Source: Candidatus Woesearchaeota archaeon (GTDB lineage: Archaea > Nanobdellota > Nanobdellia > Woesearchaeales > SKGA01). Taken from it: a DNA stretch of 64,000 nt. The stretch lies in NCBI GenBank assembly GCA_021734105.1, contig JAIPJP010000001.1, forward strand, positions 36,603 through 100,602. Direction: 5' to 3'. A model generated the notes under the pieces. It searched no databases. It was not told where the DNA came from and saw only the letters and a program-made list of their open reading frames with translations. The position numbers were made by a program, and so were the translations under genes. This document shows, piece after piece, positions 19,922 to 64,000 of this stretch. Every line of letters starts with the position of its first letter. Position 1 is the first letter of the stretch.

Positions 19922-20207
<286 letters not shown>

Positions 20208-20212
20208 ATTAT

Positions 20213-22908: not shown

Positions 22909-24951
22909 TTATTCTTTAATGAATTTTCCTATTTTAGATTCGTTATCTTGTTGCACACGGATAATGTATGTGCCTTTGTTTAAATCAGTCACATCGATTT
23001 GTTCATTAACTTGATAGTCGCCTTGTTTAAGGACTTGTCCTTGTATGTTCATGATGTGATACACTCCTGGCAAACCCATTTGCACGTATTGTGTTGCTGG
23101 GTTTGGATAAGGAAGTAGCTTATTATTTTTTTGAAGTTTTGTTTCAATTCCTGTTGCGGGTGTCACTAAAATGGTTGTGTCCATATCAATTGCTTGACCA
23201 TTATCAGTAACAAATAATTCGTTTGTTGTTGCTTCATAATTTTCATCTTGTTGGTCAAGAATAAATGTTCTTGCAAGCACATTAATAGTATCTGCGCTAT
23301 AACTAATTTGTCCAAAACTATCGGTAGTTCGTTGAATAGTTTCTTTGCCATCTTGAATATTAACAGGTAAATTCGTTATTGGCTCGTTTGTTGCGCTATT
23401 AAGATACGTTACTTGGAATCCATGTTGTCGATTTCTATTTAGGTATGCAGTAACTTCTGTGGTATCTCCTTTAGCAACTAAAGCTTGTGCAACAAGTGCT
23501 TGGTAGTTTTCTTCAGGCATTCCTATGATGTTAAAATCAATACTATCGACAGCTTCATTTTCTGGTTGGTTAAAACTAGTAAAAACGGTATCATTTGCAA
23601 CACTGCTGGTATATTGTCCTATAACATCTTGTGTTGTTGAATTAATAAATTGAACAGTAAATGGAATTGCCGCGCTATCTTCTGCGCTACGAACTAAAAA
23701 GTTTACACCATAATCTCCAAGTATTCTATCTATGGTAAATATTGAATCTGCATCGATTCTTTCTCCGTTGTCAGTTGTTACTATTTCATTTGTACTTGGA
23801 ACAATACCTTGATTGTTTTGATTAAGAATAAATGAATATGTTGGCATATTTAGTGCTTCTTGGATATGCGTTATCATACCGTTTTCATCAGTAACTTTTT
23901 GAACAATTTCGTTTCCATTATTTATTTTTATAGGGATGTATGCTGCTGGTTGGTTGTCATCTGCATAACGATATGTAGCGGTGAATCCGTGTTCTCGAAT
24001 TCTATCCAGTACTGCGTTAATACCGACGGTTCCATTTGCAACGCCGCTAAAATTAATGTTTTGTCCAACAAATAAACTATCTGGATTTCCATTTACAGTT
24101 AATACTAGCGAATCATAGTTGTTTCCTGCTTCTGTAGTAAAACTCATGTTTGCTTGACCTTGTTCACTAGTTACGTGGTCTAATGTATCGGTGCCATTAA
24201 GTAGTATTGCGTTAAACGGGATAAGATTTCCATTTTCAGCACTCGTTGCTTGGACATTAACGCCGTATGTTTCCATGAGTTTATTTGTTATTTCTGTAAA
24301 GGTGGTATCTCCTTTAACAAAGGAAATTGTTTTTTTGATTGGTTCGTAGTTTTCTGCTAGAATTTCTAATTCTGCATTAAATGATGAAACTTTTTTTGTG
24401 AAGTCATTAAAGACAATGTTATTGTCTGTAATCTCTGGCGTAAAAAGTTGATTATTTCCTGTATTTAGTTTTGCGCTTGTTACAGGTATTGGGTTTCCTG
24501 CTGAGTCAGTAACGTTAATTACTGCACTAAAGGTATAATTGTCAAAAACAATTTCATGTAATGCTCGTCGTAATCCTTTTTGTGTAGTAATGGTATCGGG
24601 GAGTATTGCGAGTTTGAATTGTTCGTTGTTTTCAAATCCAGCGAGTGCATCGTTGCTAATTTTTGCACTATCTTCTGCGATTGCAACATACGCATTACCT
24701 GGTAGCATGTTTGTTTCATTAACGCCGACGTTTTTGTAGAATAAGGTTGAATCAGTGTCTTTAACAAATCCGTTGCCAACTAAGGTTTGTGTATTTTGTT
24801 CGGTAAAATTATTCGCTGTCATGAGCGAATCAGTTGTTGTTTGGACGTTTGGATTGTTTAAAGTAAGCGTTTGAGCCTGAGCTGTTGTTCCTGTTGCAAG
24901 GCCTACTGTGATGAGTGCTGCTCCAATAATATTTTTTAATGTTGATACCAT
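22909..24951 (-). CDS. Secreted protein of about 680 aa with a bacterial-type signal peptide and a C-terminal domain resembling the T9SS sorting tail.
   Basis: The start was chosen at 'MVSTLKNIIGAALITVGLATGTTAQA', which is preceded by 'gaggga'. The C-terminal approximately 70 aa read 'LLPYPNPATQYVQMGLPGVYHIMNIQGQVLKQGDYQVNEQIDVTDLNKGTYIIRVQQDNESKIGKFIKE'. This matches the T9SS C-terminal-domain pattern as I recall it (YPNPA...G.Y.....G..V......ID.S.L..G.Y.V.V......K..K.IK). Confidence 0.65.
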   Translation of the reverse strand: MVSTLKNIIGAALITVGLATGTTAQAQTLTLNNPNVQTTTDSLMTANNFTEQNTQTLVGNGFVKDTDSTLFYKNVGVNETNMLPGNAYVAIAEDSAKISNDALAGFENNEQFKLAILPDTITTQKGLRRALHEIVFDNYTFSAVINVTDSAGNPIPVTSAKLNTGNNQLFTPEITDNNIVFNDFTKKVSSFNAELEILAENYEPIKKTISFVKGDTTFTEITNKLMETYGVNVQATSAENGNLIPFNAILLNGTDTLDHVTSEQGQANMSFTTEAGNNYDSLVLTVNGNPDSLFVGQNINFSGVANGTVGINAVLDRIREHGFTATYRYADDNQPAAYIPIKINNGNEIVQKVTDENGMITHIQEALNMPTYSFILNQNNQGIVPSTNEIVTTDNGERIDADSIFTIDRILGDYGVNFLVRSAEDSAAIPFTVQFINSTTQDVIGQYTSSVANDTVFTSFNQPENEAVDSIDFNIIGMPEENYQALVAQALVAKGDTTEVTAYLNRNRQHGFQVTYLNSATNEPITNLPVNIQDGKETIQRTTDSFGQISYSADTINVLARTFILDQQDENYEATTNELFVTDNGQAIDMDTTILVTPATGIETKLQKNNKLLPYPNPATQYVQMGLPGVYHIMNIQGQVLKQGDYQVNEQIDVTDLNKGTYIIRVQQDNESKIGKFIKE

Positions 24952-25293
24952 GTGTAACTCCCTCTTATTATTTTTTTTCTTGGTTATTCTCTTCGCTTCC
25001 ACAACGAACACTGCCCTGTTGTCACTATGAAGTGAGATATTATATATAAACGTTTCTATATCTGGTGTTTGGGGCTACATAAATTGCTTTAGGAGTACTT
25101 TTTTTTGCTTGTTTTTGCTTGTTTTTGCTCGTGTAGCTCCTAACTCAAAAAAACTTCAAAGGAGTTAGGCAAACGATTTTGAACAACACCCTCAAAACAC
25201 AAGTTTTAAATATCACATAAAGTATGTTAGTAGTGGTTTTTGTAAACTGGGAGATATTTATCTCTATACAAACAGCGTAAGGTGACACAAAAT

Positions 25294-50189: not shown

Positions 50190-51068
50190 ATGGCAGAACA
50201 GAAGATGCATTTGCCCTTAGAAACTTTAAAGCGAATTATAACGGGCAAACAAGTTGTAGAAGCGCGTTTATTTGATCAACGCAGACGAAAATTGGTGGTT
50301 GGCGATACGATAGTTCTTTTTGATAGTGAAAAAAAGACTTCGCTTGTGAAAGTTACTATTGCAGCTATTCGTTCCGGAAAAGATTTTGGCGAACTCTTTG
50401 ATTATTATGGTTCTGTTAAATTGGGTGGTGCAAAGACGCTTTCTAAAGAAGATTATTTGGCTAAAATGAACACGTTGTATTATCCTCCTGATGTGCAGCG
50501 TCTTGGTGTTATTGGTATTGAGTTCGCTAAAGAGAAAATTCTGCAAGGGATGTGGTATGATCCTCATTTTAAAAAAGTATTATTTACGTGGCATCCTACA
50601 GTTGATTTCAAAAAATATATTCCTATTACGCAATGTTATGGTATATGTTTAAATGATGCTGGCGAAGTGCTTATTGGTCGTTGTAAAAAGGTACATGGTG
50701 GAAAATGGATTTTGCCAGGTGGTATTGTTGAGTATGGTAAAGATCCCATAAAGACTCTGCATCGCGAAGTTGATGAAGAAATTTCTATTACGATAACAAA
50801 GCCAACACTTCTTGGTGTGCAACAAGTAGAATTTCTTGATAAGGAAGATGATGATGCTTTTCAACTTCGTTTTGTTGCAATGATTAAAAAATATAAAGAG
50901 TTAACACCTAATCCTGATACTGGCGATGTGTGGGAGAGAAAGTTTATTCCTCTTGATGAATTAAATACTTATTTGAAATGGGGTTTTATTGGTCAAGAAT
51001 TAGTGCATCTTGCGCAAGAGTGGTTTGCTGAAAAAAAGAAAAAGAAAAAAAGTAAAGCGGCAAAGTAA
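50190..51068 (+). CDS. Two-domain protein. The N-terminus is an ASCH/PUA-like beta-barrel (tentative) and the C-terminus is a NUDIX hydrolase.
   Basis: The Nudix box is 'LPGGIVEYGKDPIKTLHREVDEEISI', which fits GX5EX7REUXEE. The N-terminal approximately 110 aa read 'ITGKQVVEARLFDQRRRKLVVGDTIVLFD', and the ASCH call is tentative. Confidence 0.65.
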   Translation: MAEQKMHLPLETLKRIITGKQVVEARLFDQRRRKLVVGDTIVLFDSEKKTSLVKVTIAAIRSGKDFGELFDYYGSVKLGGAKTLSKEDYLAKMNTLYYPPDVQRLGVIGIEFAKEKILQGMWYDPHFKKVLFTWHPTVDFKKYIPITQCYGICLNDAGEVLIGRCKKVHGGKWILPGGIVEYGKDPIKTLHREVDEEISITITKPTLLGVQQVEFLDKEDDDAFQLRFVAMIKKYKELTPNPDTGDVWERKFIPLDELNTYLKWGFIGQELVHLAQEWFAEKKKKKKSKAAK

Positions 51069-51821: not shown

Positions 51822-52004
51822 TCAGCTGGTTTTTTTAACGAGTTGTTCTGGTGTTGCATGAAAACTATATTTGAGTGTGAGGTGTGGTGGTGGCGCTCGA
51901 AGTAAGGCTCGGTGCACGTCAAATGCTTCGCTTACTATTGCTCGAAGATGCTCAAGATATGCTTTAGCTTCACCTTGTATTTCAAATGAGATGTTGTATT
52001 TCAT
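51822..52004 (-). pseudogene. N-terminal fragment of 60 aa resembling a 2H phosphoesterase (LigT/ThpR-like). It is translationally coupled to the upstream nuclease gene through an ATGA overlap.
   Basis: '...HRALLRAPPPHLTLKYSFHATPEQL' carries an H-x-T-x motif preceded by an Arg-rich stretch, as in the first half of 2H enzymes. At 60 aa the ORF is less than half the length of the family and lacks the second HxTx motif. Confidence 0.3.
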
Positions 52005-53470
52005 GATAATTTTTTTAGCGCGTCTAAAACATCTATCATGCTCTGCGTGTCTTGCTTGCAGTAGGCAAGGAGTGCTGTTCTAATGGCTTGTGCATCCTCA
52101 TCTGTTGCGTTGTCTAACGCTAAGAACGATGCGCTGGCAACGCCTCCTCCTGCTATGTCCATGCCTTCGTAGGAGGTGTTGGTGAGTACAGGAAGTAATG
52201 CTTTTATGGAGTAACTGCCGTGCTGATCAGGATGGTAGTAGGCGAAGCTGCGAAATGGTTCTGCTAAGTCTTTAAATCTACTTAATACATCAGTTATCCA
52301 TGCTTCGTGTTCTGGATATGCTTTCATGAGTTCTTGTAAGATTCGTATTTCAAATGGTGCGTTAAATGCGAGGATGGTTCCAGAGGTGTTAGCAAGTGCA
52401 GCTTTCAGACTTGCTAAAAATGCTGGTCTTGGATCAAGTTCAGGCTCAGCAATAAATTCAACGTGTTTAGTTTCTCCATTGTTTTGTTGTATTATTAAAG
52501 AATATTGGAAGGGTATTTGTTGGTAGGGTTTAGTTCCTTCGTATTTTGGTATGCCGGTGTTAAACGTTTCAAAGTCTACGTGATGGAGTGGAAATGTTAA
52601 TGAAGATAAGAATTCGTTAATAACGTCTTCTTCTAGGTGTGCTTGACCGGTCATAACTGCAACGCTTTGGAGTGCTTGTTTTCTGGATAGTTTTGTTTCT
52701 CTAGGGATTTTTTCTATAAGTTTGTAGCCATTGCCCCATAATGCTTTTGCTTTTTGATTGCGTAGGCTTACGAGTTCAAAGACGGAGTGTGCTGGTAGGA
52801 CTTGACTGCAGGCATCGCAGTCTCGTGGTTTTTCGCAAATGGTTTCTGGGTATTGTTTTTGCGTCAGTAAGTCTTTAAGGAAGGGGATGAAATGTTCAGC
52901 GTCATCATATACTGGTGCTAATCTATCGGTGACGTCTTCGACTTCTAGAAATGCTGCTACGTCGATGGGTTGTGTTTGTGGTCCTCGAATATAGTCTGAG
53001 TTGATGTGCACGATATGAATCCTATTAAGATGTAGTCCGTTCTGGGTTAAGACGCGAGCTTGAAACGCCACGTCATGCAAATGTTCATCTTTTACTCTTG
53101 TTGATGACTTGACTTCATACAAGTCCCAACTATCTTTCCCGACAGGAACAAGGATGTCTACTCGCGCAAAGCAAGGAGTGTCTTCAACAACGGCAGCAAA
53201 GCCCGCTTCAAAGAGTGGTACTCGCTTCCCCGAGGCAAGCAATTCTTTGGTCTTCGCAGCGTTTGCTTCCTGATCATAATTGCGTAGCATGATGCCATCT
53301 GGCCACATCGAGGTTGCCATCTCTCCAACAACCTGCCCCTCTGCCATCCGAAGCTCGCCATCAATGCCTGTCTCAGGCAAGAGCCGAGGCCTATTGAGCT
53401 TCATCCAAAACAAGCGAGGACAAAACACGCCAGTAACATAAAGTGATTTCGTGAGGGTTATTTGAGTCAT
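52001..53470 (-). CDS. Two-domain nuclease. The N-terminus is a Cas4/RecB-like PD-(D/E)xK nuclease with Cys ligands. The C-terminus is a DEDD-type 3'-5' exonuclease-like domain. The overall architecture is DUF2779-like.
   Basis: The N-terminus reads 'GVFCPRLFW', the Cas4 N-terminal Cys. 'DILVPVGKDSWDLYEVKSS' is the D...E.K core. 'CEKPRDCDAC' is the Cys cluster. The C-terminus reads 'LHHVDFETFNTG' (Exo I D-x-E), 'ILAFNAPFE' and 'YYHPDQHGSYSIKAL'. The start is at the internal ATG 'MTQITL'. Confidence 0.6.
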   Translation of the reverse strand: MTQITLTKSLYVTGVFCPRLFWMKLNRPRLLPETGIDGELRMAEGQVVGEMATSMWPDGIMLRNYDQEANAAKTKELLASGKRVPLFEAGFAAVVEDTPCFARVDILVPVGKDSWDLYEVKSSTRVKDEHLHDVAFQARVLTQNGLHLNRIHIVHINSDYIRGPQTQPIDVAAFLEVEDVTDRLAPVYDDAEHFIPFLKDLLTQKQYPETICEKPRDCDACSQVLPAHSVFELVSLRNQKAKALWGNGYKLIEKIPRETKLSRKQALQSVAVMTGQAHLEEDVINEFLSSLTFPLHHVDFETFNTGIPKYEGTKPYQQIPFQYSLIIQQNNGETKHVEFIAEPELDPRPAFLASLKAALANTSGTILAFNAPFEIRILQELMKAYPEHEAWITDVLSRFKDLAEPFRSFAYYHPDQHGSYSIKALLPVLTNTSYEGMDIAGGGVASASFLALDNATDEDAQAIRTALLAYCKQDTQSMIDVLDALKKLS

Positions 53471-53618
53471 TTTGTTGGTTATTGTACATTTGTTTTGTAT
53501 TTTTTTATTAATGATGCTTCTTAATTTAATTTGGATACTTATTTGAATCATAAACTACTTTGTAGTCTGACCTTTACAGTAGTTCAAAACTTTTTAATAC
53601 TTTGTTCAACTACGAATT

Positions 53619-54779
53619 TCATATTTTTCCCTCAAGTAAATCTATGATTTTTCCTGCAACGTAAACTTTTTTCCTACCTTCTGAGCCAACTTCTTCAGCT
53701 ATATTTGCTTCTATGAGTTTTTGTACTAAATTCCATGCAGTTGGTTGTGTTGATTCTAATATGACTCTTATATCTTCTACTGTAAAGAATGGTTGTTTAA
53801 ATAAAGAATCAATTATTGCGTGCATTTTTGGGCTTTGAGAAAATCCTTGAATTTTTTGATGAAGTTCTTGCTTATATGTGTCTATTTTATTAAGTAGTTC
53901 AAATGATTTTTCTGCTTGCACTTCTAGAGCTTTAAGGATAAATATTAACCAGTCTTCTATTTTTCCTTTTGCACTAACTTCGTAGAGTGCTTCGATATAT
54001 CTATCTTTGTTTCTTGTTAAATACTCGCTAATATAAAGTAATGGTTGACTAATTATTTTTTCTTTGCAAAGTTGTAATACTATAAACATTCGTCCAATTC
54101 TACCATTACCATCTCTAAATGGATGGATTGCTTCAAATTGATAATGAGTAAGGGCTATTTTATATAATGGAATAACATCTTCGTCAGAATTCATATATTC
54201 AATTAAATTTTTCATTAAATGATGTGTTGTTTCAGGTGATGCCGGAACAAATTTTGCCGAGTCAAAGGTGTCCTCTCGTTTTCCAATTGCGTTTTGTTTT
54301 TCCTTATAGTTTCCTGGTTCTTTATCCTCTCCTCGAACGCCTTGCAACAATTTTTTATGAATTTCTTTGATTAGCTCTTCTGAAAATTTTGTTTCATTGG
54401 TTTTTAACGCCTGAAGCAGTGCTTCTTGATAATTTCTAATTTCTTCGTTATCTAGTCTTTTTTCTAGATTTTGTTCTTTAATTTTCTCTCCTTTAAAGAC
54501 ATCTGAAATTGTTGAACGAGTACCTTCTATTTCTGAACTAAGTTGTGCTTCTTTAATCATAAACGGAAGCATGAAAAGACTGATTTCTTGTTCGGAGAAT
54601 TTTTTTGTTAGTCCATCAAGTCTCCCTAATGCTAGACTTGTTTTTTGAGCTTGGAAACTTAATGCCTTTTGTTCTTCAAATTCTAAAGGTAAAAAGCGTG
54701 GTTCGAATCGAAAATATGCTCCTTGAGGCTCCCAAACGGCTTTTCCCGCTCTTTCTGAAGTAAAATCTTTTTCGTTCAT
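53619..54779 (-). CDS. fic: Fic/Doc-family protein (AMPylation-type).
   Basis: The canonical motif is 'HPFRDGNGRIGR'. There is a C-terminal wHTH-like tail. Confidence 0.85.
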   Translation of the reverse strand: MNEKDFTSERAGKAVWEPQGAYFRFEPRFLPLEFEEQKALSFQAQKTSLALGRLDGLTKKFSEQEISLFMLPFMIKEAQLSSEIEGTRSTISDVFKGEKIKEQNLEKRLDNEEIRNYQEALLQALKTNETKFSEELIKEIHKKLLQGVRGEDKEPGNYKEKQNAIGKREDTFDSAKFVPASPETTHHLMKNLIEYMNSDEDVIPLYKIALTHYQFEAIHPFRDGNGRIGRMFIVLQLCKEKIISQPLLYISEYLTRNKDRYIEALYEVSAKGKIEDWLIFILKALEVQAEKSFELLNKIDTYKQELHQKIQGFSQSPKMHAIIDSLFKQPFFTVEDIRVILESTQPTAWNLVQKLIEANIAEEVGSEGRKKVYVAGKIIDLLEGKI

Positions 54780-54811
54780 TGTTGATTATGTATTATAATT
54801 TCACCTTATAA

Positions 54812-54915
54812 ATGTTTGCTTTATTATAAGTTCCTTTATAAACGCCCTTATAGTTACATCGTTTATTATAAATCGAAGTTGATCATGTTGCTTTATTATA
54901 AGTTCCTTTATAAAT
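54812..54915. promoter_or_regulatory. Two copies of a 30-nt direct repeat, 'atgtt(t)gctttattataagttcctttataaa', separated by about 43 nt and lying upstream of fic.
   Basis: The repeats are at 54812-54842 and 54886-54915 and differ by a single T indel. Each contains TATA-like 'ttattataa' and 'tttataaa'. A further 'tttattataaat' lies in the spacer. Confidence 0.6.
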
Positions 54916-55237
54916 CCCTTTATAATTTTCGTTTGTACTCAGTCACATCTTGATTGAGCAAGCCATTCTTTGAATGATTTTAAGGATGTACTATTTTTTA
55001 AATACGTTACGAGAGATTGTCTAGTGAGATTTAAGTGCTTTTAACCCTCAAAAAAGCTTAAATAGTTTCTAATCTCTTTTTATTCAAACCAACTGCTGGG
55101 GAGTTCGTCAGGTTAAAGTCCTGAAGGGCAAACCAGGGTAGCGGCACTCTTCGTAGTGTCTTTTGGTTTTTCTTTCCGAAAATTCTTCGAATTTACTGCA
55201 GAAGAGCTTTTTAATTGGTTGTTTGACTTGTTTCTTT

Positions 55238-55906
55238 ATGCGATTAAAAGATATTTCTTTGGAAAATCGTCCTCGTGAGCGAATGCAACGAGAAGGTGCT
55301 GTTGTACTTTCAGATGCTGAATTATTAGCTGTTATTTTACAGAAAGGAACTAGAAACGAAAATGTTATTGATATGTCGCATCGGTTGATTTCTAAATATG
55401 GATTTAATAAGCTTTCATGTTGTAGTTTACATGAATTACAAGAGATTAACGGTATAGGCGTGGCTAAAGCTTCTCAGATTCTTGCGTTATTTGAGTTTAA
55501 TAAACGACATAATTTATCTAAACAAAATGGTAAGTCTATTAAATCTGCTAAAGATGTGTATGAGTATTGTTCTGTTAAATTAGCAGGAGCAGATAAAGAA
55601 CATTTTATGATTTTGCATTTAGATTCTAAAAATAAAGTGATTAAAGATGAAATAGTGTCTGTTGGTACGTTAAACAGCTCTTTGATACATCCAAGAGAAG
55701 TCTTTAAATCAGCTATCAAAGAAAGTGCTAATTCTGTAATAGTAGTTCACAATCATCCAAGTGGAAATCCAGAACCTTCTGAAAATGATAAAGAAGTAAC
55801 TCAAATACTCGTAAAGGCAGGGAAATTGTTAGCTATTACTGTTTTAGATCATATTATTATTGGAACTGAGGGGTTTTTTAGTTTTAGCAACGAGGGATAT
55901 TTGTGA
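55238..55906 (+). CDS. radC: RadC-like JAB/JAMM-domain protein.
   Basis: The N-terminus reads 'ENRPRERMQREGAVVLSDAELLAVIL'. The JAMM motif is 'VVHNHPSGNPEPSENDKEVTQ'. I chose the internal ATG at 55238 over the track start at 55163. Confidence 0.8.
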   Translation: MRLKDISLENRPRERMQREGAVVLSDAELLAVILQKGTRNENVIDMSHRLISKYGFNKLSCCSLHELQEINGIGVAKASQILALFEFNKRHNLSKQNGKSIKSAKDVYEYCSVKLAGADKEHFMILHLDSKNKVIKDEIVSVGTLNSSLIHPREVFKSAIKESANSVIVVHNHPSGNPEPSENDKEVTQILVKAGKLLAITVLDHIIIGTEGFFSFSNEGYL

Positions 55907-56616
55907 AGATTATTGAGCCAAAATCGTTTACTGATAAATTTGAGAAATTATTTCCTCCTCAAGTCAAAAATGTGTTTAAAAAGAAGATTGCGGAGTTAAA
56001 AGATAATCCGACTAAAGGGAGGCCGTTGAGTTATGTATTTATCAGAGAGTTAAAAAGTAAGGGTTATCGCGTGTATTATGTTATTTATGATGAAAAGGTG
56101 ATATTGGTGGATTGTGGTAATAAAAAAACACAAGAAGTTCCAGAAGACATCGCTGCAGCTGGAGGTGACTGCGTCTTCACCTTTGACAATCTTCAAGACA
56201 CGTATACGTTAGAAGATCAAGTCAATGGTAAGTTATACATTGATTGTCCGGATGAAAAATCTTCTGATGGCTGGCTTGTTGTTGGAAAATATTCACAGGG
56301 TGAACATTATATGTCTTCTCAAATGGTTTATGGAAAAAAGCTAGTTGCACCTTACGCGCAAACTATTCGAGCATTTAGCGCAGGCAAAGGTTCTGGGGGA
56401 AGTGGTTATACTTCATTTAGAGAACCAGGCGAATACACTATTGAAGTTTTCGCTTATGATTGTGCTGCCATTAAAGCTAATCCTGAAGTAAATACGTTGT
56501 GCGATGATGAACCTAGGTTTATTCAAAGAGTTGAAGATTTATGGGAAAACTTAGAACCCTACAAAGAACTAAGACAAACTATTATTGTTGTTGCAGAAAA
56601 TCAAACTGCTTCGTAA
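55903..56616 (+). CDS. Fusion protein. The N-terminus is a RelE/ParE-like toxin fold and the C-terminal domain of about 160 aa is unknown.
   Basis: The N-terminus reads 'NPTKGRPLSYVFIRELKSKGYRVYYVIYDEKVILVDCGNKK', which matches the pattern ...G.YRIIY.ID.E...V.IL.IG.RK. The GTG start overlaps the radC stop as GTGA. Confidence 0.55.
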   Translation: MKIIEPKSFTDKFEKLFPPQVKNVFKKKIAELKDNPTKGRPLSYVFIRELKSKGYRVYYVIYDEKVILVDCGNKKTQEVPEDIAAAGGDCVFTFDNLQDTYTLEDQVNGKLYIDCPDEKSSDGWLVVGKYSQGEHYMSSQMVYGKKLVAPYAQTIRAFSAGKGSGGSGYTSFREPGEYTIEVFAYDCAAIKANPEVNTLCDDEPRFIQRVEDLWENLEPYKELRQTIIVVAENQTAS

Positions 56617-57071
56617 AATGAGGGTGTGGTGTTACCAAGAATATCGTTGCATGCCATAAGTGCAGAATAATGGTGCTGGTGGTTCTTTATTTATTTTCAT
56701 CAATAAACTTTTCCTATCCTGGAGACTTTCTCCACGTAGAAGATTTCACAGCCTGTATCGTCTCGGGTCAGGCTTGACGTCCAGGGTAGTAAGCGTTCGC
56801 TTTCTGCGCTAATAAGATACCCTTCCATCCGAACGACCTCGTGTTTTTTTATCTGCGACAATGTTTTACGTATGTCTTTGTTTGCTGGTATCAGGTGGTT
56901 GTTGGAGAAATGTTCTTTAACATATGTTGGCTATATGTCTTTATTAGAGGATGATTTTAAGAAAATTTATGAGGATACTGTTTTTGTGTAGATGTCCAAA
57001 AGATTTCTAGGAATTAATAAACTCATGTCCGTCAAACTCTAGCGCAACTCTTCTTTCTTTGCTTCAGGGAG

Positions 57072-58058
57072 CTATTTCCATTGCCGTTCTACACGCTTTG
57101 CAAGTCGCATGTCTTTTGCTATTTTTGATTTCATTCCTTTCCCAACTTTTGCTAGGCCGTAGCGTACTGCTTTAGGTATGCCTGCTGTTTTTATTCCTTT
57201 CTTGGTTTGTGCTTTGCTTGCTGTATACACAATAGTTCCTATGCTTTCTAGAACAATTGTTGCTATTTCGTCTGGCGTTGCTAATTTCTCGTTTTGTAGA
57301 TATGTTGTTGGGTAAAGTGTTGTTTTTATGCTGACGCGTCTTTTGAGTTCTTGGGGGAGTTCTAAGAGTAGGTGTTGTAGTGTTTGTGGACTTTTGTCTT
57401 GTCGGATTATCTCATTAGTGATACTCACATCGTAATTGCTAAGTAGGGGGATATATTGCTTGTAAAACGCATCATAATTTTTTTCTACAATATGTTGTAC
57501 TTTATTTTTGTTTTCTGCAAATTTCATGCGATTATCTTTGTGATACGATAAACCTGCAATGGTTAAGAATAAATCTTCGTAGCTAAATGCTTCAGGTAAA
57601 ACGAGTAGCGCAGTATTCACTGCGTGTGCTAAATTTTTTTCTTGTGCTTGATTAACAAGCTCGTTTGTTTTTATGCTAAGAAATGGTTTATGCATGCGTC
57701 CTGCGACATAGAGTGAATTCCATTCTGTTAAATCTTTAATGAGTGCTTCTTCGCTGATAACACCGTACTTAATGAGCTTGTCTTCAAATTTTACAAAAGG
57801 GTTGTAATAGATGCCAGTATACTCTTCTTGTAATTGTTCTACTGCGTTTATGCCGTGTTGTTTTGCCCATAACGAGTAATCTTGTGGTCGTCGTCCCATG
57901 TTATGCAGATGCCACTGTGCTACTTCTTGCACACCAAAGATAAAATCTATCATGGGTCCTCGTTTCATGGAATAGTTTTGTTGTTCCATGGCTCCAGAAC
58001 CGTATGCTATAGCAAAGTCTGGCGTGAATTCGGTGATAATATCTAAGGGATCAATCAT
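57072..58058 (-). CDS. Tam41/Mmp37-like phosphatidate cytidylyltransferase (CDP-DAG synthase) homologue.
   Basis: 'AIAYGSGAMEQ...MIDFIFGVQEVAQWHLHNMGRRPQDYS...GIYYNPFVKFEDKLIKYGVISEEALIKDLTEWNSLYVAGRMHKP' matches my recollection of the Tam41 pattern (YGSG...DFIF.V...WH..N....HYS...YFNP.V......KYGV.....L..DL..W..LY.AGR.QKP). Confidence 0.55.
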   Translation of the reverse strand: MIDPLDIITEFTPDFAIAYGSGAMEQQNYSMKRGPMIDFIFGVQEVAQWHLHNMGRRPQDYSLWAKQHGINAVEQLQEEYTGIYYNPFVKFEDKLIKYGVISEEALIKDLTEWNSLYVAGRMHKPFLSIKTNELVNQAQEKNLAHAVNTALLVLPEAFSYEDLFLTIAGLSYHKDNRMKFAENKNKVQHIVEKNYDAFYKQYIPLLSNYDVSITNEIIRQDKSPQTLQHLLLELPQELKRRVSIKTTLYPTTYLQNEKLATPDEIATIVLESIGTIVYTASKAQTKKGIKTAGIPKAVRYGLAKVGKGMKSKIAKDMRLAKRVERQWK

Positions 58059-58384
58059 TTTGTGAATTTCTAAATGTAAGGCGTTTTATAAGTTTGCGTA
58101 TTTGTCTTTTTATACGCTTGCAACTTGCCTGTAATATTCGTCCTATAAGTATTATGATAAGTTGTTTTATGCTTCGAACAATAATTTTGTTGAGTTGTTT
58201 GATTATGACGTGGTTCATAGATAGACTTGCTTAGAATATCTTATTTAACACTTCACCTTATAGTATATAAGGGTTTATAAGTTATGTACTTAGCACGAAG
58301 TAATCAAAACATAGCAAAAATTAATTTTCAAGAAAAAACTATATTGTTAAAGACAGTTCTTATGATTTTGTAGGTAAAACCTTT

Positions 58385-58756
58385 TTAAAAAATAATAATT
58401 ATTGTTGTAAAGGCGATAAGTATTCCTACAATATAAATAATGAGTCCTTCCACCCAAGGCATTATTCTCCATTTCGCAAAAATAACTGGTTTTTTGAGTT
58501 TATGAATTTCAAGACCAAGTGTGAATATAGATAAAAGTAAGAAAAGAAGGGATGCTCCCGCAACAAGTTTGCTACAATTAAATTCTCCCCCCTTTCTTGA
58601 GCATACTTGATTAAGGATACTAACTGTTAAGTCTGATGGATCAATAGTTAATCCAGAAACAGCACTCATGCCAACAAATAAACCTGAAATTATTCCTTCA
58701 AAAAATATTCTTTTTCGAACAGGATACATTTTTTGTTTTCGCTTTTTTTGCGGCAT
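58385..58756 (-). CDS. Small membrane protein with about 3 TM helices.
   Basis: The basic N-terminus 'PQKKRKQKMYPVRKR' is followed by hydrophobic helices. Confidence 0.45.
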   Translation of the reverse strand: MPQKKRKQKMYPVRKRIFFEGIISGLFVGMSAVSGLTIDPSDLTVSILNQVCSRKGGEFNCSKLVAGASLLFLLLSIFTLGLEIHKLKKPVIFAKWRIMPWVEGLIIYIVGILIAFTTIIIIF

Positions 58757-59076
58757 AGTAGTTATTTTTTGAAAATACTTTTTAAATATTCTCTTTCTTA
58801 GGAGCTGTTTAGAATAGTTGAGGTATACTGCCTTGAAGATTTCTTAAGATAAACAAAGGAAAAAAATTTATGCTATGTGGATAAAATAAACTTGTTCAGC
58901 TGTTTTTTTTGGCTATGTAAAATTTGGCTGTTTGTTATTTAGTCTAGAGGAAAAATAATTATTTTGAGTAGAGAAAATGATTTCTTTTTAAAGCAAAAAT
59001 ATTATCTATGAAGCAAAGCCTTTTCTTGAGTTGTTAAATACTTATTTTTATAAATACTTGATTATTTTGATTCTGT

Positions 59077-59727
59077 ATGGGTAAGAACAATTGTTCGTTA
59101 GATGACGTTTTCGCAGATAACTTTTTCTTTGAAGAAGATGTTAGTACGCGCAAAAGTTCCTATCGTGCCTTTTTTGACAAAACCATGCATTCAGATGAAA
59201 TTACGGAGTTTATTGCCAATAATCAATTCAGTTTAAGAATATCAGAGACTCCTCTTGAAGAAAGTGTTTCAAAAGTTGTTTTAGGACGGCATTTAGCTTC
59301 TGAAATTACAGAACAATATGGGCAGTTCACTCTACAACATCGACAAAGATTAGAATTGTTTGCAAATTGGTTTGCAAAAGAAGAAAATCCTTCAAAGAAC
59401 AATTTTCATTCTTTTCTTGTTGATATGGGCGTACGTGACTTTTTAAATTTTTTTGACGGGTATGATCATGCTTTGAAATTACTCACTACCTTACCTTCGT
59501 TTTCTAGCGTGTTAAAATTTGTTAAATGTACTAAAGAAATTTTTAAACCTTTAACGTTATCGGGAATTCAAACGAGTAATCCCGCTGTAATTGATGAGGT
59601 GATAGAATTATTTCATAAAACTATTAAACAAGAAGGTCTTACTAAAAAAGAAACGCATCATTCAAATAACTTCGGTAATGATATTCTCGTCTCGCCAGAT
59701 AAAAAAAATACCTTTTTACGTATCTAA
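59077..59727 (+). CDS. Hypothetical protein. This is the 5' part of a gene apparently split at an A8 run.
   Basis: The ORF ends 24 nt after the A8 homopolymer at 59703-59710 ('cagataaaaaaaatacc'). Confidence 0.4.
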   Translation: MGKNNCSLDDVFADNFFFEEDVSTRKSSYRAFFDKTMHSDEITEFIANNQFSLRISETPLEESVSKVVLGRHLASEITEQYGQFTLQHRQRLELFANWFAKEENPSKNNFHSFLVDMGVRDFLNFFDGYDHALKLLTTLPSFSSVLKFVKCTKEIFKPLTLSGIQTSNPAVIDEVIELFHKTIKQEGLTKKETHHSNNFGNDILVSPDKKNTFLRI

Positions 59728-60430
59728 CGAACATTTGTGGAAAGATATTTCAACTGTGTATCCTAACTTATCTCCAACACAAAAATCTTGGTTAATTGAA
59801 TTTGCGAAATTTTATTTTATAAAAAATTTACCTTCTAAGAAAAAATATGTTACTTTTTTTAGTTATACTCAGAAAACAACAATAAGAACTTATTTAGGTC
59901 CCTATCAATATTGTGTTAATCTTGTTAAGGGTTTAAATGCTTATACAGATTATATGGTTACAAATGGACTAGAACATAGTTTTTCTTCTTCTGACAGAAG
60001 TAATGAATCTACTAAAAAGTCTCTTTCTAAGGAAAAAATTAATGGTAAAAAGAATAATTTAAATGGGTGCAAGTCAACGATTGATGCGTTTGTAACTTAT
60101 AACAATAATAACTTAGTTGTAGACAGTAGTGATGTTGGAATAGTTAGTGATGAGTCTACTAAAAAGGAATTATTACATGAGTTGTTTAGCGCACGTTATA
60201 ATGTTAAAGTATTAAATGCTTTAGAAGATTTTTTTGATTTTATTGAGCAAAGCGAAGATCTTTCTTTTTCTACATTTAAAAAATATAATAGGCGAGCACA
60301 CCAAAATCTTAAGAAACAATTTTATTCTCCTGCGCTAGTGTATAAACAAACCTATAAATTTTTTAGTGAGTTATATTCTTGTGTAAATTGGCCTAAATTT
60401 AAGCAAATTGAAAAAATGATGTATGAGTGA
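59678..60430 (+). CDS. Hypothetical protein. This is the 3' part of the split gene, in the +1 frame relative to the previous ORF.
   Basis: It overlaps the upstream ORF by 50 nt, and the frames merge at the A8 run. Confidence 0.4.
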   Translation: MIFSSRQIKKIPFYVSNEHLWKDISTVYPNLSPTQKSWLIEFAKFYFIKNLPSKKKYVTFFSYTQKTTIRTYLGPYQYCVNLVKGLNAYTDYMVTNGLEHSFSSSDRSNESTKKSLSKEKINGKKNNLNGCKSTIDAFVTYNNNNLVVDSSDVGIVSDESTKKELLHELFSARYNVKVLNALEDFFDFIEQSEDLSFSTFKKYNRRAHQNLKKQFYSPALVYKQTYKFFSELYSCVNWPKFKQIEKMMYE

Positions 60431-60466
60431 TAAGATTTATAATGCTTGTTTCATTCTTCTCTTTTG

Positions 60467-61495
60467 ATGAATACTCCTTGGCCGTTTCCAACAGCAGCAA
60501 CTGCTGATTTTCCCAATATGACGCTTGAAGATATTCTTGCGCTTTCCTTAGAAGAGCCTTTACTCAGCGTTGCGTGGAATTTTATGACTGATAGTAAGGG
60601 ATGTTCTTCCGCATTTCTTTCACCATCGCTTGCGCAGGCAAGACAAGAACTTATAGCTGAATTTGAAGCCCATAGAAGATATCTAGTATATGATGAATCT
60701 AGTTCACTTCGCTTTTATGAAGAAATTGTTCAAGAAGGCGGTAAATTTACCTCTCTTGCTGAGGCTAAAGAGCGTGTAGCACAATTAGAAGCAACAATTA
60801 CGCATTTAGAAGATGCTGATAGATGGATAAAAAAATTGGCCTCGGTCAATCTTGGTCATTTCACCTACGAAGAAAAACATTCACGTTCTCTTATGGAAAC
60901 AATGGTATATGATGTTGCTGATTTTGCAAAACTTTTTTTTCATGCTAGTCTTTTAGGCAGTGTTAAAGAGCGCCAACCCTTGCAATCCGTAGAAGAGTTT
61001 CAAGCTGCTTTTTTTGAGCAATACACTCATGCGTTGTGGCGAGATGCAGATTTTGCGTGGTATACTAATACTATTCCAAAGGAAACTTCTTTTCCTAGAA
61101 TTGAAGCTGAACTCAAAAAACTTTATGAAACCATCACACAAGCTCCTGATGATGCAGTGTTTATCACAAAAGGATATTTTAGTTCTTTTTTTAAAAAACC
61201 AAAAGAATTACACGTAGGTGATTTCGAAGAATTTGAGTATGATGCAAAAACAAATGAGTTGGTGTATTCATTACAAGTTCCTTCATATAGACTCGGCGTA
61301 AAGGAAAATTATCCTTGTGTGCTTTTTGATGATAAAAAAAATAGTTTTGTTGGTTCTAATGTAGAACTATATTCTCGAAATGAAGCTAAAGAGTATCTTA
61401 CTATATTGCATCATGAGTACAAAGAAAAAGCGCCAAATGGCACGTTGACAAATAAGGAGCTAGCACAAGCTGTTGATAGTTTATTTGAAACATAA
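60467..61495 (+). CDS. Hypothetical protein of about 340 aa.
   Basis: I chose the ATG at 60467 ('MNTPWPFP') because the track start is a TTG. There is no recognisable motif. Confidence 0.5.
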   Translation: MNTPWPFPTAATADFPNMTLEDILALSLEEPLLSVAWNFMTDSKGCSSAFLSPSLAQARQELIAEFEAHRRYLVYDESSSLRFYEEIVQEGGKFTSLAEAKERVAQLEATITHLEDADRWIKKLASVNLGHFTYEEKHSRSLMETMVYDVADFAKLFFHASLLGSVKERQPLQSVEEFQAAFFEQYTHALWRDADFAWYTNTIPKETSFPRIEAELKKLYETITQAPDDAVFITKGYFSSFFKKPKELHVGDFEEFEYDAKTNELVYSLQVPSYRLGVKENYPCVLFDDKKNSFVGSNVELYSRNEAKEYLTILHHEYKEKAPNGTLTNKELAQAVDSLFET

Positions 61496-61811
61496 AACAG
61501 CGACATTTATAAAGCAAACCTGTTTTCTTACGTTTAGTATACGCATAGTATGTGTTTATGGTCACTTATGAGTTGCCAGAGCGTTGCATTCCAGCATAAG
61601 TGAAAAAAAAGAAAAACACAATATTTATGATTGGTGAGAAAGTCATAGAAATATATTCTTATATTTCTAGGGCGCAACAAATCCTTATTGCGGATTTGTG
61701 TGCAAGAAGTCCTTTGGTCTTCTTTGCACCAAAAACCAGATGGTTTTTGTGCGTAACGTAACGCTCCTTGACAAGAACTGAGTTAACTTTTTCTAACGTA
61801 TAGTAAACAAA

Positions 61812-63497
61812 ATGAGTACAGAAAATAGTAATTTTGACAATTTAGGGCTTGCTGAAGGCATGCTCAAGATGATTAAAGAACAACATTTCACACAGCCAAC
61901 TGAGATTCAGTTAAAGACTATTCCTCTAGTTGTCGAAGGTAAAGATGTTATGGGTGGCAGTGCTACTGGGTCTGGAAAGACGTTAGCATTTGGTGCTGGT
62001 ATTATTCAAAACTCTGAATCTGGTCATGGCATGCAAGCATTAGTCTTAGCACCAACTCGTGAACTTGCTGAGCAAATCTCAGAAGCACTCAAAATTTTTT
62101 CTCGTTGGAAAAAACTTAAAGTTGGTGTTATTTATGGTGGTGTCTCTTATGGACCTCAAGAACAAGCATTAGCAAAATGCGATATTATTGTTGGAACACC
62201 AGGAAGAATTCTTGATCACATGGAACGCGGTAATATTAACTTTAGCAAATTAAAACATCTTGTTTTAGATGAAGCTGATAGAATGCTTGACATGGGTTTT
62301 ATTGATGATGTAAAAAAGATTATGGGTCAATGTCCTAAAGAGAAGCAAACCTTACTTTTTTCAGCAACGCTTCATCCTGAAATTACAAGTCTAGCTAAAA
62401 AATTCATGCATGATCCGGTAAAGATTTCAGCAATCGAGCATGTTGATCCAAAAAAATTAACGCAAGTCTATTATGAAGTTGCAGGACCCTTAAAGTTTTC
62501 ACTACTCGTTCACTTGCTTAAAAAAGAGAGAACCTCAGGTCTTATCATGATTTTTTGTAACTCTCGTCGTATGGTTGACGTGGTTGAGAAGAATTTGAAA
62601 AAACAAGGAATATCTGCTATGGCAATTCACGGCGGTTTAACCCAAAACAGACGAAGCGGTGTTTTAGATTCATTTCATGGTGAAAAAGCAGATGTGTTAG
62701 TATGCACTGATGTTGCAGCTCGTGGTCTTGATATTCCGCAAGTAACGCACGTCTACAATTATGATATTCCTGCTGACGGAAAATCGTACGTGCATCGTAT
62801 TGGTCGTACAGCTCGAGCTGGAAAAGAAGGTCGCGTAGTAAATTTATTATCGCAACGAGATCATCCTAACTTTTCAAGAGTCTTGTATGAGAATGATTTT
62901 GAAGTAACAAAATTGGAAAAACCATTCATTGACCAAGTGAAAACCGATATGACTCGTTCTGATAGAAAGCCAGAGCATCGTGGTCCTCGACAATATGACC
63001 GAGGGGATAGTCGCGCTCGTGAGCGTCCAGAAAGACGAAGCTATGGTCAACGAGAGTCTCGAGACGAAAGTCCTCGACGACGTTTTGGTAGCGACTCTGG
63101 AAATGACAGACCAAGAGGTAACTTTGGTAGTCGTTCTCGTGAAGGCGGTAGTGATAGATCTAGAAGCAGTTTTGGTGATAAACCTCGAAGTAGCTTTGGT
63201 AATCGTTCTCGTGAAGGTGGTAGTGATAGACCTAGAAGTAACTTTGGCGATAAACCAAGAAGCAGCTTTGGCAGTTCTGCTCCTAAGAAACAATTTAGTA
63301 GCCATAAACCAAGAGAAGGCAGCGAAGGCAGTAGTTCTAGACCTCGTGGAAATAAATTTGGTGGTCGAGATGGTCCTCGCGAAGGTAATCGTGGAAGTAG
63401 TCGTTTTCGAACAAATGATAAACCAAAAACTTCTTTTAACAATCGAGGCGGTGCGCGCGGTGCTGGTAAAAGTCGGCAACGAACCACGCAACGATAA
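61812..63497 (+). CDS. DEAD-box ATP-dependent RNA helicase with an Arg/Ser/Gly-rich repetitive C-terminal tail.
   Basis: The motifs are 'GSGKT', 'PTRELA', 'LVLDEADRMLDMGF', 'FSATL' and 'HRIGRTARAG'. The tail contains two tandem copies of 'RSREGGSDR(S/P)RS(S/N)FGDKPRSSFG'. Confidence 0.9.
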   Translation: MSTENSNFDNLGLAEGMLKMIKEQHFTQPTEIQLKTIPLVVEGKDVMGGSATGSGKTLAFGAGIIQNSESGHGMQALVLAPTRELAEQISEALKIFSRWKKLKVGVIYGGVSYGPQEQALAKCDIIVGTPGRILDHMERGNINFSKLKHLVLDEADRMLDMGFIDDVKKIMGQCPKEKQTLLFSATLHPEITSLAKKFMHDPVKISAIEHVDPKKLTQVYYEVAGPLKFSLLVHLLKKERTSGLIMIFCNSRRMVDVVEKNLKKQGISAMAIHGGLTQNRRSGVLDSFHGEKADVLVCTDVAARGLDIPQVTHVYNYDIPADGKSYVHRIGRTARAGKEGRVVNLLSQRDHPNFSRVLYENDFEVTKLEKPFIDQVKTDMTRSDRKPEHRGPRQYDRGDSRARERPERRSYGQRESRDESPRRRFGSDSGNDRPRGNFGSRSREGGSDRSRSSFGDKPRSSFGNRSREGGSDRPRSNFGDKPRSSFGSSAPKKQFSSHKPREGSEGSSSRPRGNKFGGRDGPREGNRGSSRFRTNDKPKTSFNNRGGARGAGKSRQRTTQR

Positions 63498-63545
63498 TTT
63501 TTTTTATTTTCTACTTCTTTTTTTTGTTTATTTGCTTTTTCTACT
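63498..63545 (+). terminator. Oligo-T tract after the DEAD-box gene. Its position suits an archaeal-style terminator.
   Basis: 'taattttttttattttctacttcttttttttgtttatttgctttttc' follows directly after the stop. Confidence 0.35.
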
Positions 63546-63731
63546 TTTTGAAAAATGTTCGTTTGATAATTGCTGAGCAATTTTTTTGTTCAGTACAACA
63601 CTTTATCTAAGAAGAATAAGGACTTTTAAGAAACTGTTGTAATTCAATCTACAATAGTATAATAATACTAGAAGGTAAAACAAAAAAAATAAAAAAAATG
63701 TGGTAAACTAAGAATACTGTATGAGTATGAT

Positions 63732-63926
63732 TTATTCTACTAGTGTGACGTTTTCAGCCTTTGGGCCTCGTTCGCCTTCCACTACTTCAAAATTTACTTC
63801 GTCGTTTTCGTTTAGTTTCATACCAGGTGTTAAACCGGTCATATGTACAAAATACTCTTTGTCGTCTTCGCCTACAATAAAGCCAAAGCCTTTACTTACG
63901 TTAAAAAATTTTACTTTTCCTTTCAT
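63732..63926 (-). CDS. csp: Cold-shock domain protein (CspA family).
   Basis: 'MKGKVKFFNVSKGFGFIVGEDDKEYFVHMTGL' carries RNP1 'KGFGFI' and RNP2 'VFVHM'. Confidence 0.85.
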   Translation of the reverse strand: MKGKVKFFNVSKGFGFIVGEDDKEYFVHMTGLTPGMKLNENDEVNFEVVEGERGPKAENVTLVE

Positions 63927-64000
63927 TTTAATTTTACTCTCATTTTATTATCAACGGATTTCTCCCTTGATTATCACTTAAAAAACACTCAGAGTATATA

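Follow-up and report, generated by a model that had tools for sequence, protein, structure and literature searches.

We describe a locus in a 64,000-nucleotide (nt) stretch of DNA, called the window below, from Candidatus Woesearchaeota archaeon, a tiny-celled member of the DPANN archaea (assembly GCA_021734105.1, contig JAIPJP010000001.1, positions 36,603 to 100,602). The subject is a run of four adjacent genes at window positions 52001-56616 that encode a DUF2779-family double nuclease, a Fic protein, RadC and a RelE/ParE-like protein. A preliminary description, made from the sequence alone, had proposed these four open reading frames (ORFs) and their domains; all four ORFs are present, and the domain assignments of the four proteins are all correct. 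We are moderately confident that the locus is a variable mosaic that surrounds a conserved radC gene and in which each gene has its own explanation, and that it is not a single four-gene system. The features are as follows (aa, amino acids; kb, kilobases; GC, guanine plus cytosine content):

52001..53470, minus strand: DUF2779-family two-nuclease protein (PF11074; motifs in a seven-sequence alignment)
53459..55177, no strand: segment without a blastn match in the closest relative (contig L001); holds Fic, the 40-nt repeats and a candidate small RNA
53619..54779, minus strand: class-II SoFic-type Fic protein, putative AMPylase (Pfam, PADLOC SoFic, PDB SoFic)
54816-54855 and 54888-54927, no strand: two copies of a 40-nt element with a 72-nt period, 90% identical, with a 27-nt exact core
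55087..55170, plus strand: candidate structured small RNA between Fic and radC (closing stem, two hairpins, terminal U-run)
55238..55906, plus strand: radC, full length, UPF0758/HhH N-domain and JAB/JAMM domain (NF000642; Pfam)
55903-56616, plus strand: RelE/ParE-like ORF, 237 aa (Pfam ParE_toxin; E. coli RelE in PDB)
55903..56136, plus strand: RelE/ParE-fold core, aa 1-78, with a GTG start overlapping the radC stop (GTGA)
56137..56616, plus strand: orphan 159-aa segment in frame with the RelE-like core; homology and GC break at 56136

The four genes do not stay together from genome to genome: DUF2779, radC and the RelE-like gene are present in the closest relative, L001, but Fic is not. In the blastn comparison window 52029-53458 corresponds to L001 1125-2548 at 67.6% identity and window 55178-56134 to L001 2606-3561 at 93.6%, a gap that points to different histories for DUF2779 and radC. 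In L001 the two blocks are only about 57-100 nt apart, and the segment 53459..55177 reads as an insertion here or as what a deletion removed from L001. In two further contigs, L005 and L006, DUF2779 occurs without an adjacent radC: the L005 homologue (67% identical) lies beside a MazG-like gene, a helix-turn-helix (HTH) gene and two RelE-like/ribbon-helix-helix (RHH) toxin-antitoxin pairs (L005 3176-4338), and the L006 homologue adjoins HisRS. None of the six radC contigs that were compared directly with the window contains DUF2779, Fic or the RelE-like gene, i.e. radC is the sole shared gene. The RelE-like gene was found at none of eight other Woesearchaeota radC loci, and no flanking gene, be it MetRS, Tam41 or another, is common to the window and its relatives. 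The synteny check thus supports a variable block and not a conserved core synteny: Fic and 1.7 kb are missing in L001, and the neighbours of DUF2779 differ in L005 and L006.

The same observations bear on the idea that the four genes form one defence or addiction system, with the nuclease as effector, the Fic and RelE-like proteins as toxins and RadC processing them. The genes are physically adjacent, and each of the four families has been met in settings of the conflict type (SoFic in PADLOC; RadC, which occurs in polyvalent proteins, PMC5512222; DUF2779 on plasmids). Against this, DUF2779/Fic and radC/RelE-like are two divergent transcription units, Fic is missing from L001, in L005 and L006 DUF2779 has no link to radC, the set recurs in 0/8 radC loci, and the identities of DUF2779 and radC to L001 lie far apart as given above. 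The idea is largely refuted by synteny, and we regard it as extremely improbable; the four genes, being separate in the relatives, do not make up one system.

The radC gene is a resident gene, conserved across the lineage and under purifying selection. Its product scores 256.7 bits against NF000642 (cutoff 180) and 229 bits (cutoff 133.85) with the second model of the NF000642/TIGR00608 test, and Pfam finds UPF0758_N and RadC. It is a canonical HhH plus JAB protein of the RadC/YicR type (NF000642), in which the JAMM motif E...HxH...S..D is present as HNHPSGNPEPSEND at aa 171-184, with the Glu upstream. Aligned to homologues of 219-222 aa, the gene starts at ATG 55238 and not at TTG 55163, which gives a product of 222 aa. 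RadC is 68-81% identical over more than 120 protein clusters of Woesearchaeota and Nanoarchaeota. Between the window and L001 there are 24.5 synonymous and 11.5 non-synonymous changes, with a ratio of non-synonymous to synonymous rates (dN/dS) of 0.11. The term accessory, which had been applied to the whole block, does not fit radC with such values. No radC match was found in IMG/VR.

The variability lies around this gene. We read eight of the longer radC contigs (L011-L016, L018 and L019), in which radC ends at about 8660-8666 in locus coordinates (1026 in L013). Type I restriction-modification genes (HsdR, HsdM or HsdS) lie within 8 kb of radC in all eight, on the 3' side and on the opposite strand. 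For a random gene we would roughly estimate a few percent, so the association is strong. In six of these contigs the convergent neighbour and radC overlap at the radC stop (TTAA or TTAG); in L018 and L019 the neighbour lies 5-17 nt past the stop. The upstream neighbours differ in each contig. Some islands carry extra cargo, namely an AAA_15 ATPase, a QueC/PAPS-reductase-like protein, ASCH, PIN, Bro-N, KilA-N and SLFN/AlbA_2 proteins, CBASS (CD-NTase and Cap15) and a Shedu-like SduA. In other words, the 3' end of radC is the border of variable defence islands in the relatives. For the locus as a whole the words accessory, variable and defence-flavoured are therefore appropriate, given its variable gene content and the type I restriction-modification genes beside radC in 8/8 relatives.

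Two contigs hint at how such variability may arise. In L016 the last part of radC is present a second time: a 34-aa duplicate (9581-9682, plus strand) follows an inserted Bro-N gene (8657-9487, minus strand), about 0.9 kb beyond the intact gene on its downstream side. The duplicate starts near aa 186 and is the trace of an insertion at the 3' end of radC that replaced the end of the target. In L002 the order is radC, RelE-like gene, RPA-like OB fragment and a second radC: a 95-aa fragment that resembles the C-terminal OB fold of replication factor A is followed by a second radC start (L002 1763-2050 and 2132-2251; L003 890-1039). Tn554-family elements of Firmicutes are known to target radC, with insertion near bp 540 (PMC3788773). 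The two situations have in common that radC is a preferred site for incoming DNA, and the L016 duplicate, which begins at about nt 556, lies close to the Tn554-type relative site at about bp 540. They differ in that the variable DNA here usually begins at or just past the radC stop, the host is an archaeon, the cargo consists of restriction-modification and defence genes and not of resistance genes, and the stretches read showed no transposase of the Tn554 type.

We take the RelE-like gene to be one type of cargo at this border. Its core matches PF05016 ParE_toxin with 27.2 bits against a cutoff of 23 (aa 18-69), Gp49 models also match, and the best PDB match of the family profile is E. coli RelE (5e-5). 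The predicted secondary structure of the core is beta-alpha-alpha-beta-beta-beta. When the alignment is inspected by eye, the equivalent of RelE R61 is kept (R56), whereas K52, K54, R81 and Y87 are not evidently kept. The ORF is already named at NCBI (100% identical protein). Two word-indexed searches gave a family of four loci: the window, P0002 (L001), P0003 (L002/L003) and P0128 (L017); a metagenome scan with the core returned only the known L002 contig. All four genes lie directly 3' of radC, at -4, -4, +2 and +2 nt from the stop, and in the window the GTG and the TGA share GTGA, so that the overlap of the radC stop with the downstream start, reported earlier, is real. The L017 copy (135-541) is a pseudogene with an in-frame TAA and a frameshift, followed by a PIN-domain gene; this contig contains only the last 39 codons of radC. 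The relatives have a tail of 57-86 residues after the core that ends in ...QN.LIEENN.LL.S..EAL.DVK.GRYKVL. This tail is predicted as one long helix with a predicted local distance difference test score (pLDDT) of about 60-73, and P0003, modelled from a four-sequence alignment, has a pLDDT of 50. The tail gave no match to an antitoxin family in Pfam or PDB. A likeness of the tail to the C-terminus of YefM was not counted as evidence that it is an antitoxin.

The small gene resembles the toxins of the type II systems RelBE, HigBA and ParDE in its RelE/ParE fold, its hidden Markov model matches and its 4-nt upstream overlap. In the classic relBE/parDE layout the neutraliser comes first, with a 4-nt overlap. 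The window gene differs in having no antitoxin gene: no cognate RHH, Phd/YefM or HTH gene was recognised beside it, the upstream neighbour is the conserved 222-aa RadC, and the 455-nt spacer downstream holds only short ORFs of 22-53 aa (not scanned against the family libraries). It also differs in the C-terminal extension of the protein and in the RelE residues named above. The RelE-like gene would be expressed by read-through or translational coupling from radC.

This layout raises the question whether RadC and the RelE-like protein form a two-gene, toxin-antitoxin-like module, with RadC in place of the antitoxin and neutralising or regulating the toxin. The stop/start overlap or 2-nt gap is kept in 4/4 loci, and no antitoxin-family ORF was recognised nearby, as such a module would have it. 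We nevertheless consider it unlikely. RadC is conserved in more than 120 clusters, and none of the eight sampled radC loci has a RelE-like gene; a main role of RadC elsewhere follows from this. In the closest pair, moreover, strong purifying selection acts on RadC and none is seen on the RelE core, and the pseudogene copy stands beside the visible part of radC. What had been proposed as a two-component module is, on these data, an adjacency in four loci of one narrow clade, one of them with a pseudogene. Concerning the neighbourhood of the two genes, the juxtaposition holds at all four loci, whereas the fusion is unique to the window genome. A parallel may be drawn with the RadC-like genes yeeS, ykfG and yfjY of E. 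coli prophages, which lie upstream of cbtA-type toxin-antitoxin pairs. There too the toxin genes of a mobile or variable region directly follow a RadC-family JAB gene, but these are short, JAB-only prophage paralogues whose neighbours have their own antitoxins and unrelated toxin folds.

The C-terminal part of the window protein is conspicuously different from that of its relatives. The relatives' tail (...EAL.DVK.GRYKVL) is missing, and unrelated sequence runs from residue 79 onwards. The 93.6% DNA identity to L001 stops at 56134-56136, i.e. at the end of the RelE core, and GC changes from 0.32 in Fic, the spacer, radC and the RelE core to 0.39 in the C-terminal part, the downstream spacer and Tam41. 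Pfam finds nothing in the 159-aa segment. When all 1.84 billion representatives were scanned with HMMER, the only matches were weak, spread over several stretches, and to giant proteins with PKD/Big_13 repeats around the motif PGEYTIEVFAYD, where an immunoglobulin-like beta-sandwich remnant is possible. Single-sequence AlphaFold2 on the fusion gave a pLDDT of 34. By a hand estimate an open frame of 159 codons would arise by chance in such composition with a probability of about 2e-5, so the segment comes from real coding DNA. An independent Logan assembly of SRR12088348 equals window 54985-64000 at 100% identity with the fusion junction included, and the junction is therefore real. The fusion is most simply read as a recombination chimera and not as a conserved architecture. 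Recombination at 56136 would have swapped the relatives' tail for the 3' part of an unrelated resident coding sequence, leaving a chimeric 237-aa ORF of uncertain activity. With respect to the RelE/ParE-fold fusion protein of the preliminary description, the core is confirmed and the ORF recurs in an independent assembly, whereas the fused part is confined to this genome and looks chimeric.

Could the RelE-like protein instead be a self-contained fused toxin, in which the C-terminal extension neutralises or senses in cis as in a fused toxin-antitoxin, the 159-aa domain is a swapped sensor, and the whole is a single-gene abortive-infection device at radC? Every family member extends past the 78-aa core, the extension was exchanged exactly at the domain border with the frame left open, the tail of the relatives is predicted as a single long helix with the pLDDT given above, and the locus type is rich in defence genes. 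On the other hand, the tail has no antitoxin-family match, the structure models are of low confidence, the 159-aa segment is a singleton among the 1.84 billion representatives, and its GC equals that of the downstream flank, as an accidental chimera predicts. We find a fused toxin of this kind rather improbable.

Several observations weigh against the mosaic reading that we prefer. The relatives' contigs are short (1-5.5 kb), which limits the wider context. Neither an integrase nor an att site turned up in the window, and the mechanism of variability at radC is inferred from L016 and L002 only. The RelE-like gene occurs exclusively beside radC (4/4) with no recognisable antitoxin, and a functional tie to RadC may exist. 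When the RelE core is compared with that of L001, 1 change is synonymous and 7 are non-synonymous, i.e. no purifying selection is detectable in this pair, the count of 8 substitutions being small. At longer range, between the window and L002, the core is 64% identical and RadC 58%; a conservation equal to that of RadC implies that the family is functional and not junk, and on this comparison the RelE-like family as a whole is probably functional. A bolder reading takes radC as a functional partner or docking site for defence cargo and the RelE-like proteins as a new, antitoxin-less class of toxins with exchangeable C-terminal modules that neutralise or sense, under translational control by RadC, the 237-aa protein being a working example with a novel sensor domain. 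We consider this quite unlikely, and keep to the mosaic stretch around a conserved radC.

The remaining two genes are easily understood within their own families. The DUF2779 ORF extends to 53551, but the start kept in homologues is M28 at 53470, from which the motif residues below are numbered. PF11074 matches with 133.5 bits (cutoff 23.3; 6e-39) at aa 323-448, covering profile positions 1-126 completely. The PADLOC Cas4 model matches weakly (E 0.0015, aa 94-188, no single stretch passing), matches to TM0106/UU173 models are likewise weak, and no PDB sequence match was found. An alignment of seven sequences, the window protein and six homologues from archaea and bacteria, shows the PD-(D/E)xK residues D105, E119 and K121, which are kept in six of the seven (L009 departs), and four cysteines in conserved columns (C17 and C212-x5-C218-x2-C221). 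The DEDDy blocks DFE (299-301), FNAPFE and YCKQD (470-474; Y470-x3-D474) are invariant or nearly so. By these motifs the N-terminal half is identified as a Cas4/RecB-like PD-(D/E)xK domain with a four-Cys cluster, and the C-terminal half as a DEDDy 3'-5' exonuclease-like domain.

The description of this protein as a Cas4/RecB PD-(D/E)xK nuclease with a Cys cluster and a DEDD exonuclease domain was accordingly correct, since these motifs were found. The two-domain architecture is not new (PMC3985635; PMC13621843), nor is the tyrosine variant of the DEDD motif in the DUF2779 family (PMC13621843). MMSYN1_0389 of JCVI-syn3.0 (PF11074; UU173, TM0106-like RecB nucleases) combines a Cas4-like half with a DEDD(y)-type, RNase H-fold exonuclease just as the window protein does. 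The catalytic D/E/K and DEDDy residues are kept in the window protein as in the PF11074 family, and this archaeal copy retains all four Fe-S-type cysteines, some of which MMSYN1_0389 has lost (PMC13621843). DUF2779 was found on 31 of 72,556 plasmids, where the neighbours are WYL, PD-(D/E)xK, helicase or PLD genes, and there was no match in phage genomes. The protein would be a stand-alone double nuclease, a Cas4-like endo/5'-exonuclease joined to a DEDDy 3'-5' exonuclease, and it probably trims or degrades DNA ends, for repair or against foreign DNA. It had also been noted that cas1/cas2 are lacking and that the Cas4-like gene is solo. This agrees with our scan: no cas1/cas2 family was seen among the window ORFs of at least 150 aa scanned against Pfam (not every ORF was scanned), and no CRISPR-like repeat array was found in the window.

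The Fic protein has the Pfam domains Fic_N and Fic. It matches the PADLOC SoFic model over its full length (2e-102) and the SoFic structures in PDB (1e-33, aa 16-382 on 5-362), but lies below the NCBIfam SoFic equivalog cutoff (169.8 against 550 bits), and by that measure it does not count as a SoFic ortholog. It is collinear over the full length with SoFic of Shewanella oneidensis, a class-II Fic protein that PADLOC lists as a single-gene anti-phage system. The shared features are the motif HPFxDGNGR, the (S/T)xxxE(G/N) inhibitory helix and the C-terminal domain. The catalytic loop, HPFRDGNGRIGR at aa 219-230, fits HxFx(D/E)GN(G/K)RxxR, the inhibitory-helix motif is SSEIEG at aa 81-86, inside the Fic_N match, and the C-terminal domain can be aligned with the corresponding part of SoFic. 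Recognised as a defence gene, SoFic is frequent and enriched among DPANN archaea (PMC12988326). It is reported to be toxic, and an AS1 gene has been reported downstream of E. coli Sofic (PMC12249575); a preprint reports EF-Tu as its target (bioRxiv 10.64898/2026.07.09.737422). No ORF of at least 50 aa lies within about 150 nt downstream of the window gene (shorter ORFs were not checked), which means that there is no obvious AS1 counterpart. No Fic match was found in IMG/VR. By analogy with SoFic the protein would be a self-inhibited AMP-transferase that AMPylates a translation factor and halts growth on infection.

Upstream of Fic the duplicated element pointed out earlier is real, although its length is 40 nt and not 30. 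The 27-nt core occurs twice, whereas no such repeats are expected in shuffles. Each copy contains TATA-box-like sequences, TTTATTATAA and CTTTATAAA. A TTTATAAA-type motif also lies 20-60 nt upstream of several other window genes, and because of this recurrence the duplicate is probably a duplicated archaeal TATA promoter module for Fic, which possibly serves divergent transcription as well. A sigma-70 promoter scan gave no more sites than in shuffles and is unsuited to an archaeon. We suggest that a 1.7-kb piece carrying Fic together with its duplicated TATA promoter was either gained here or lost from the sister lineage. As a separate observation, the Logan contig from the same sample begins at window 54985, a short way to the right of the two 40-nt copies. 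Either the repeat or differences between strains in the Fic segment may have caused this break in the assembly.

The same segment contains the candidate small RNA, which shows 83.5% identity over 109 nt to L005 1539-1432, beside the DUF2779 gene of that contig. RNAalifold predicts a structure of 28 pairs, in which 3 changes are compensatory and no pair is broken. Positions 55143-55160 form a terminator-like hairpin. The candidate has no Rfam, tRNA or viral match (the core was compared with IMG/VR), and Rfam gave no credible match on the Fic-radC spacer.

As to the general setting, the window has a GC of about 0.37, and searches of it for tRNAs and Rfam families gave no detection. No copy of the radC 3' end and no att-like repeat was found when looked for in the window. 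It also encodes an archaeal/eukaryotic NOG1 GTPase, a Tam41-type enzyme, large surface proteins and many orphans. The Tam41/Mmp37 match is strong (1e-87; 57072-58058, minus strand), i.e. a mitochondrial-type phosphatidate cytidylyltransferase is found in a DPANN archaeon. A NUDIX hydrolase domain lies in the ORF at 50190-51068 (plus strand), which has a weak PADLOC PDC-S07 match; about 110 residues ahead of NUDIX resemble ASCH/PUA by eye, and ASCH is also present in the radC island of L013. A bacterial-type DnaB-like helicase (DnaB and DnaB_C; 38088-39977, minus strand) in this archaeal contig could mark another acquired or mobile segment. A 700-aa protein (22909-25011, minus strand) ends in a Por_Secre_tail domain, a sorting domain of type IX secretion that is unexpected for an archaeon. 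Near it are giant proteins with CARDB/PKD, Laminin_G_3, fn3 and ILEI domains, including a 3340-aa ORF (113-10135). An A-rich tandem array at 20004-20208, with the 11-nt unit AAAAAGAAATA in about 18.5 copies and higher-order periods of 33 and 44 nt, sits just 3' of the stop of an 886-aa surface-protein gene (20213-22873, minus strand).

Taken one by one the four genes add little, as all of them come from described families. Two things only are mildly new: the RelE-like subfamily, docked at radC and lacking an antitoxin, and the defence islands linked to radC. What matters is that radC marks the edge of a variable defence region in this DPANN lineage, and that one clade has there a RelE-like gene that is otherwise not found. 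If confirmed by a survey, radC would be a cheap landmark for mining the defence genes of DPANN archaea, whose immune repertoire is poorly known, and its position would offer a fresh contextual clue to the function of RadC.

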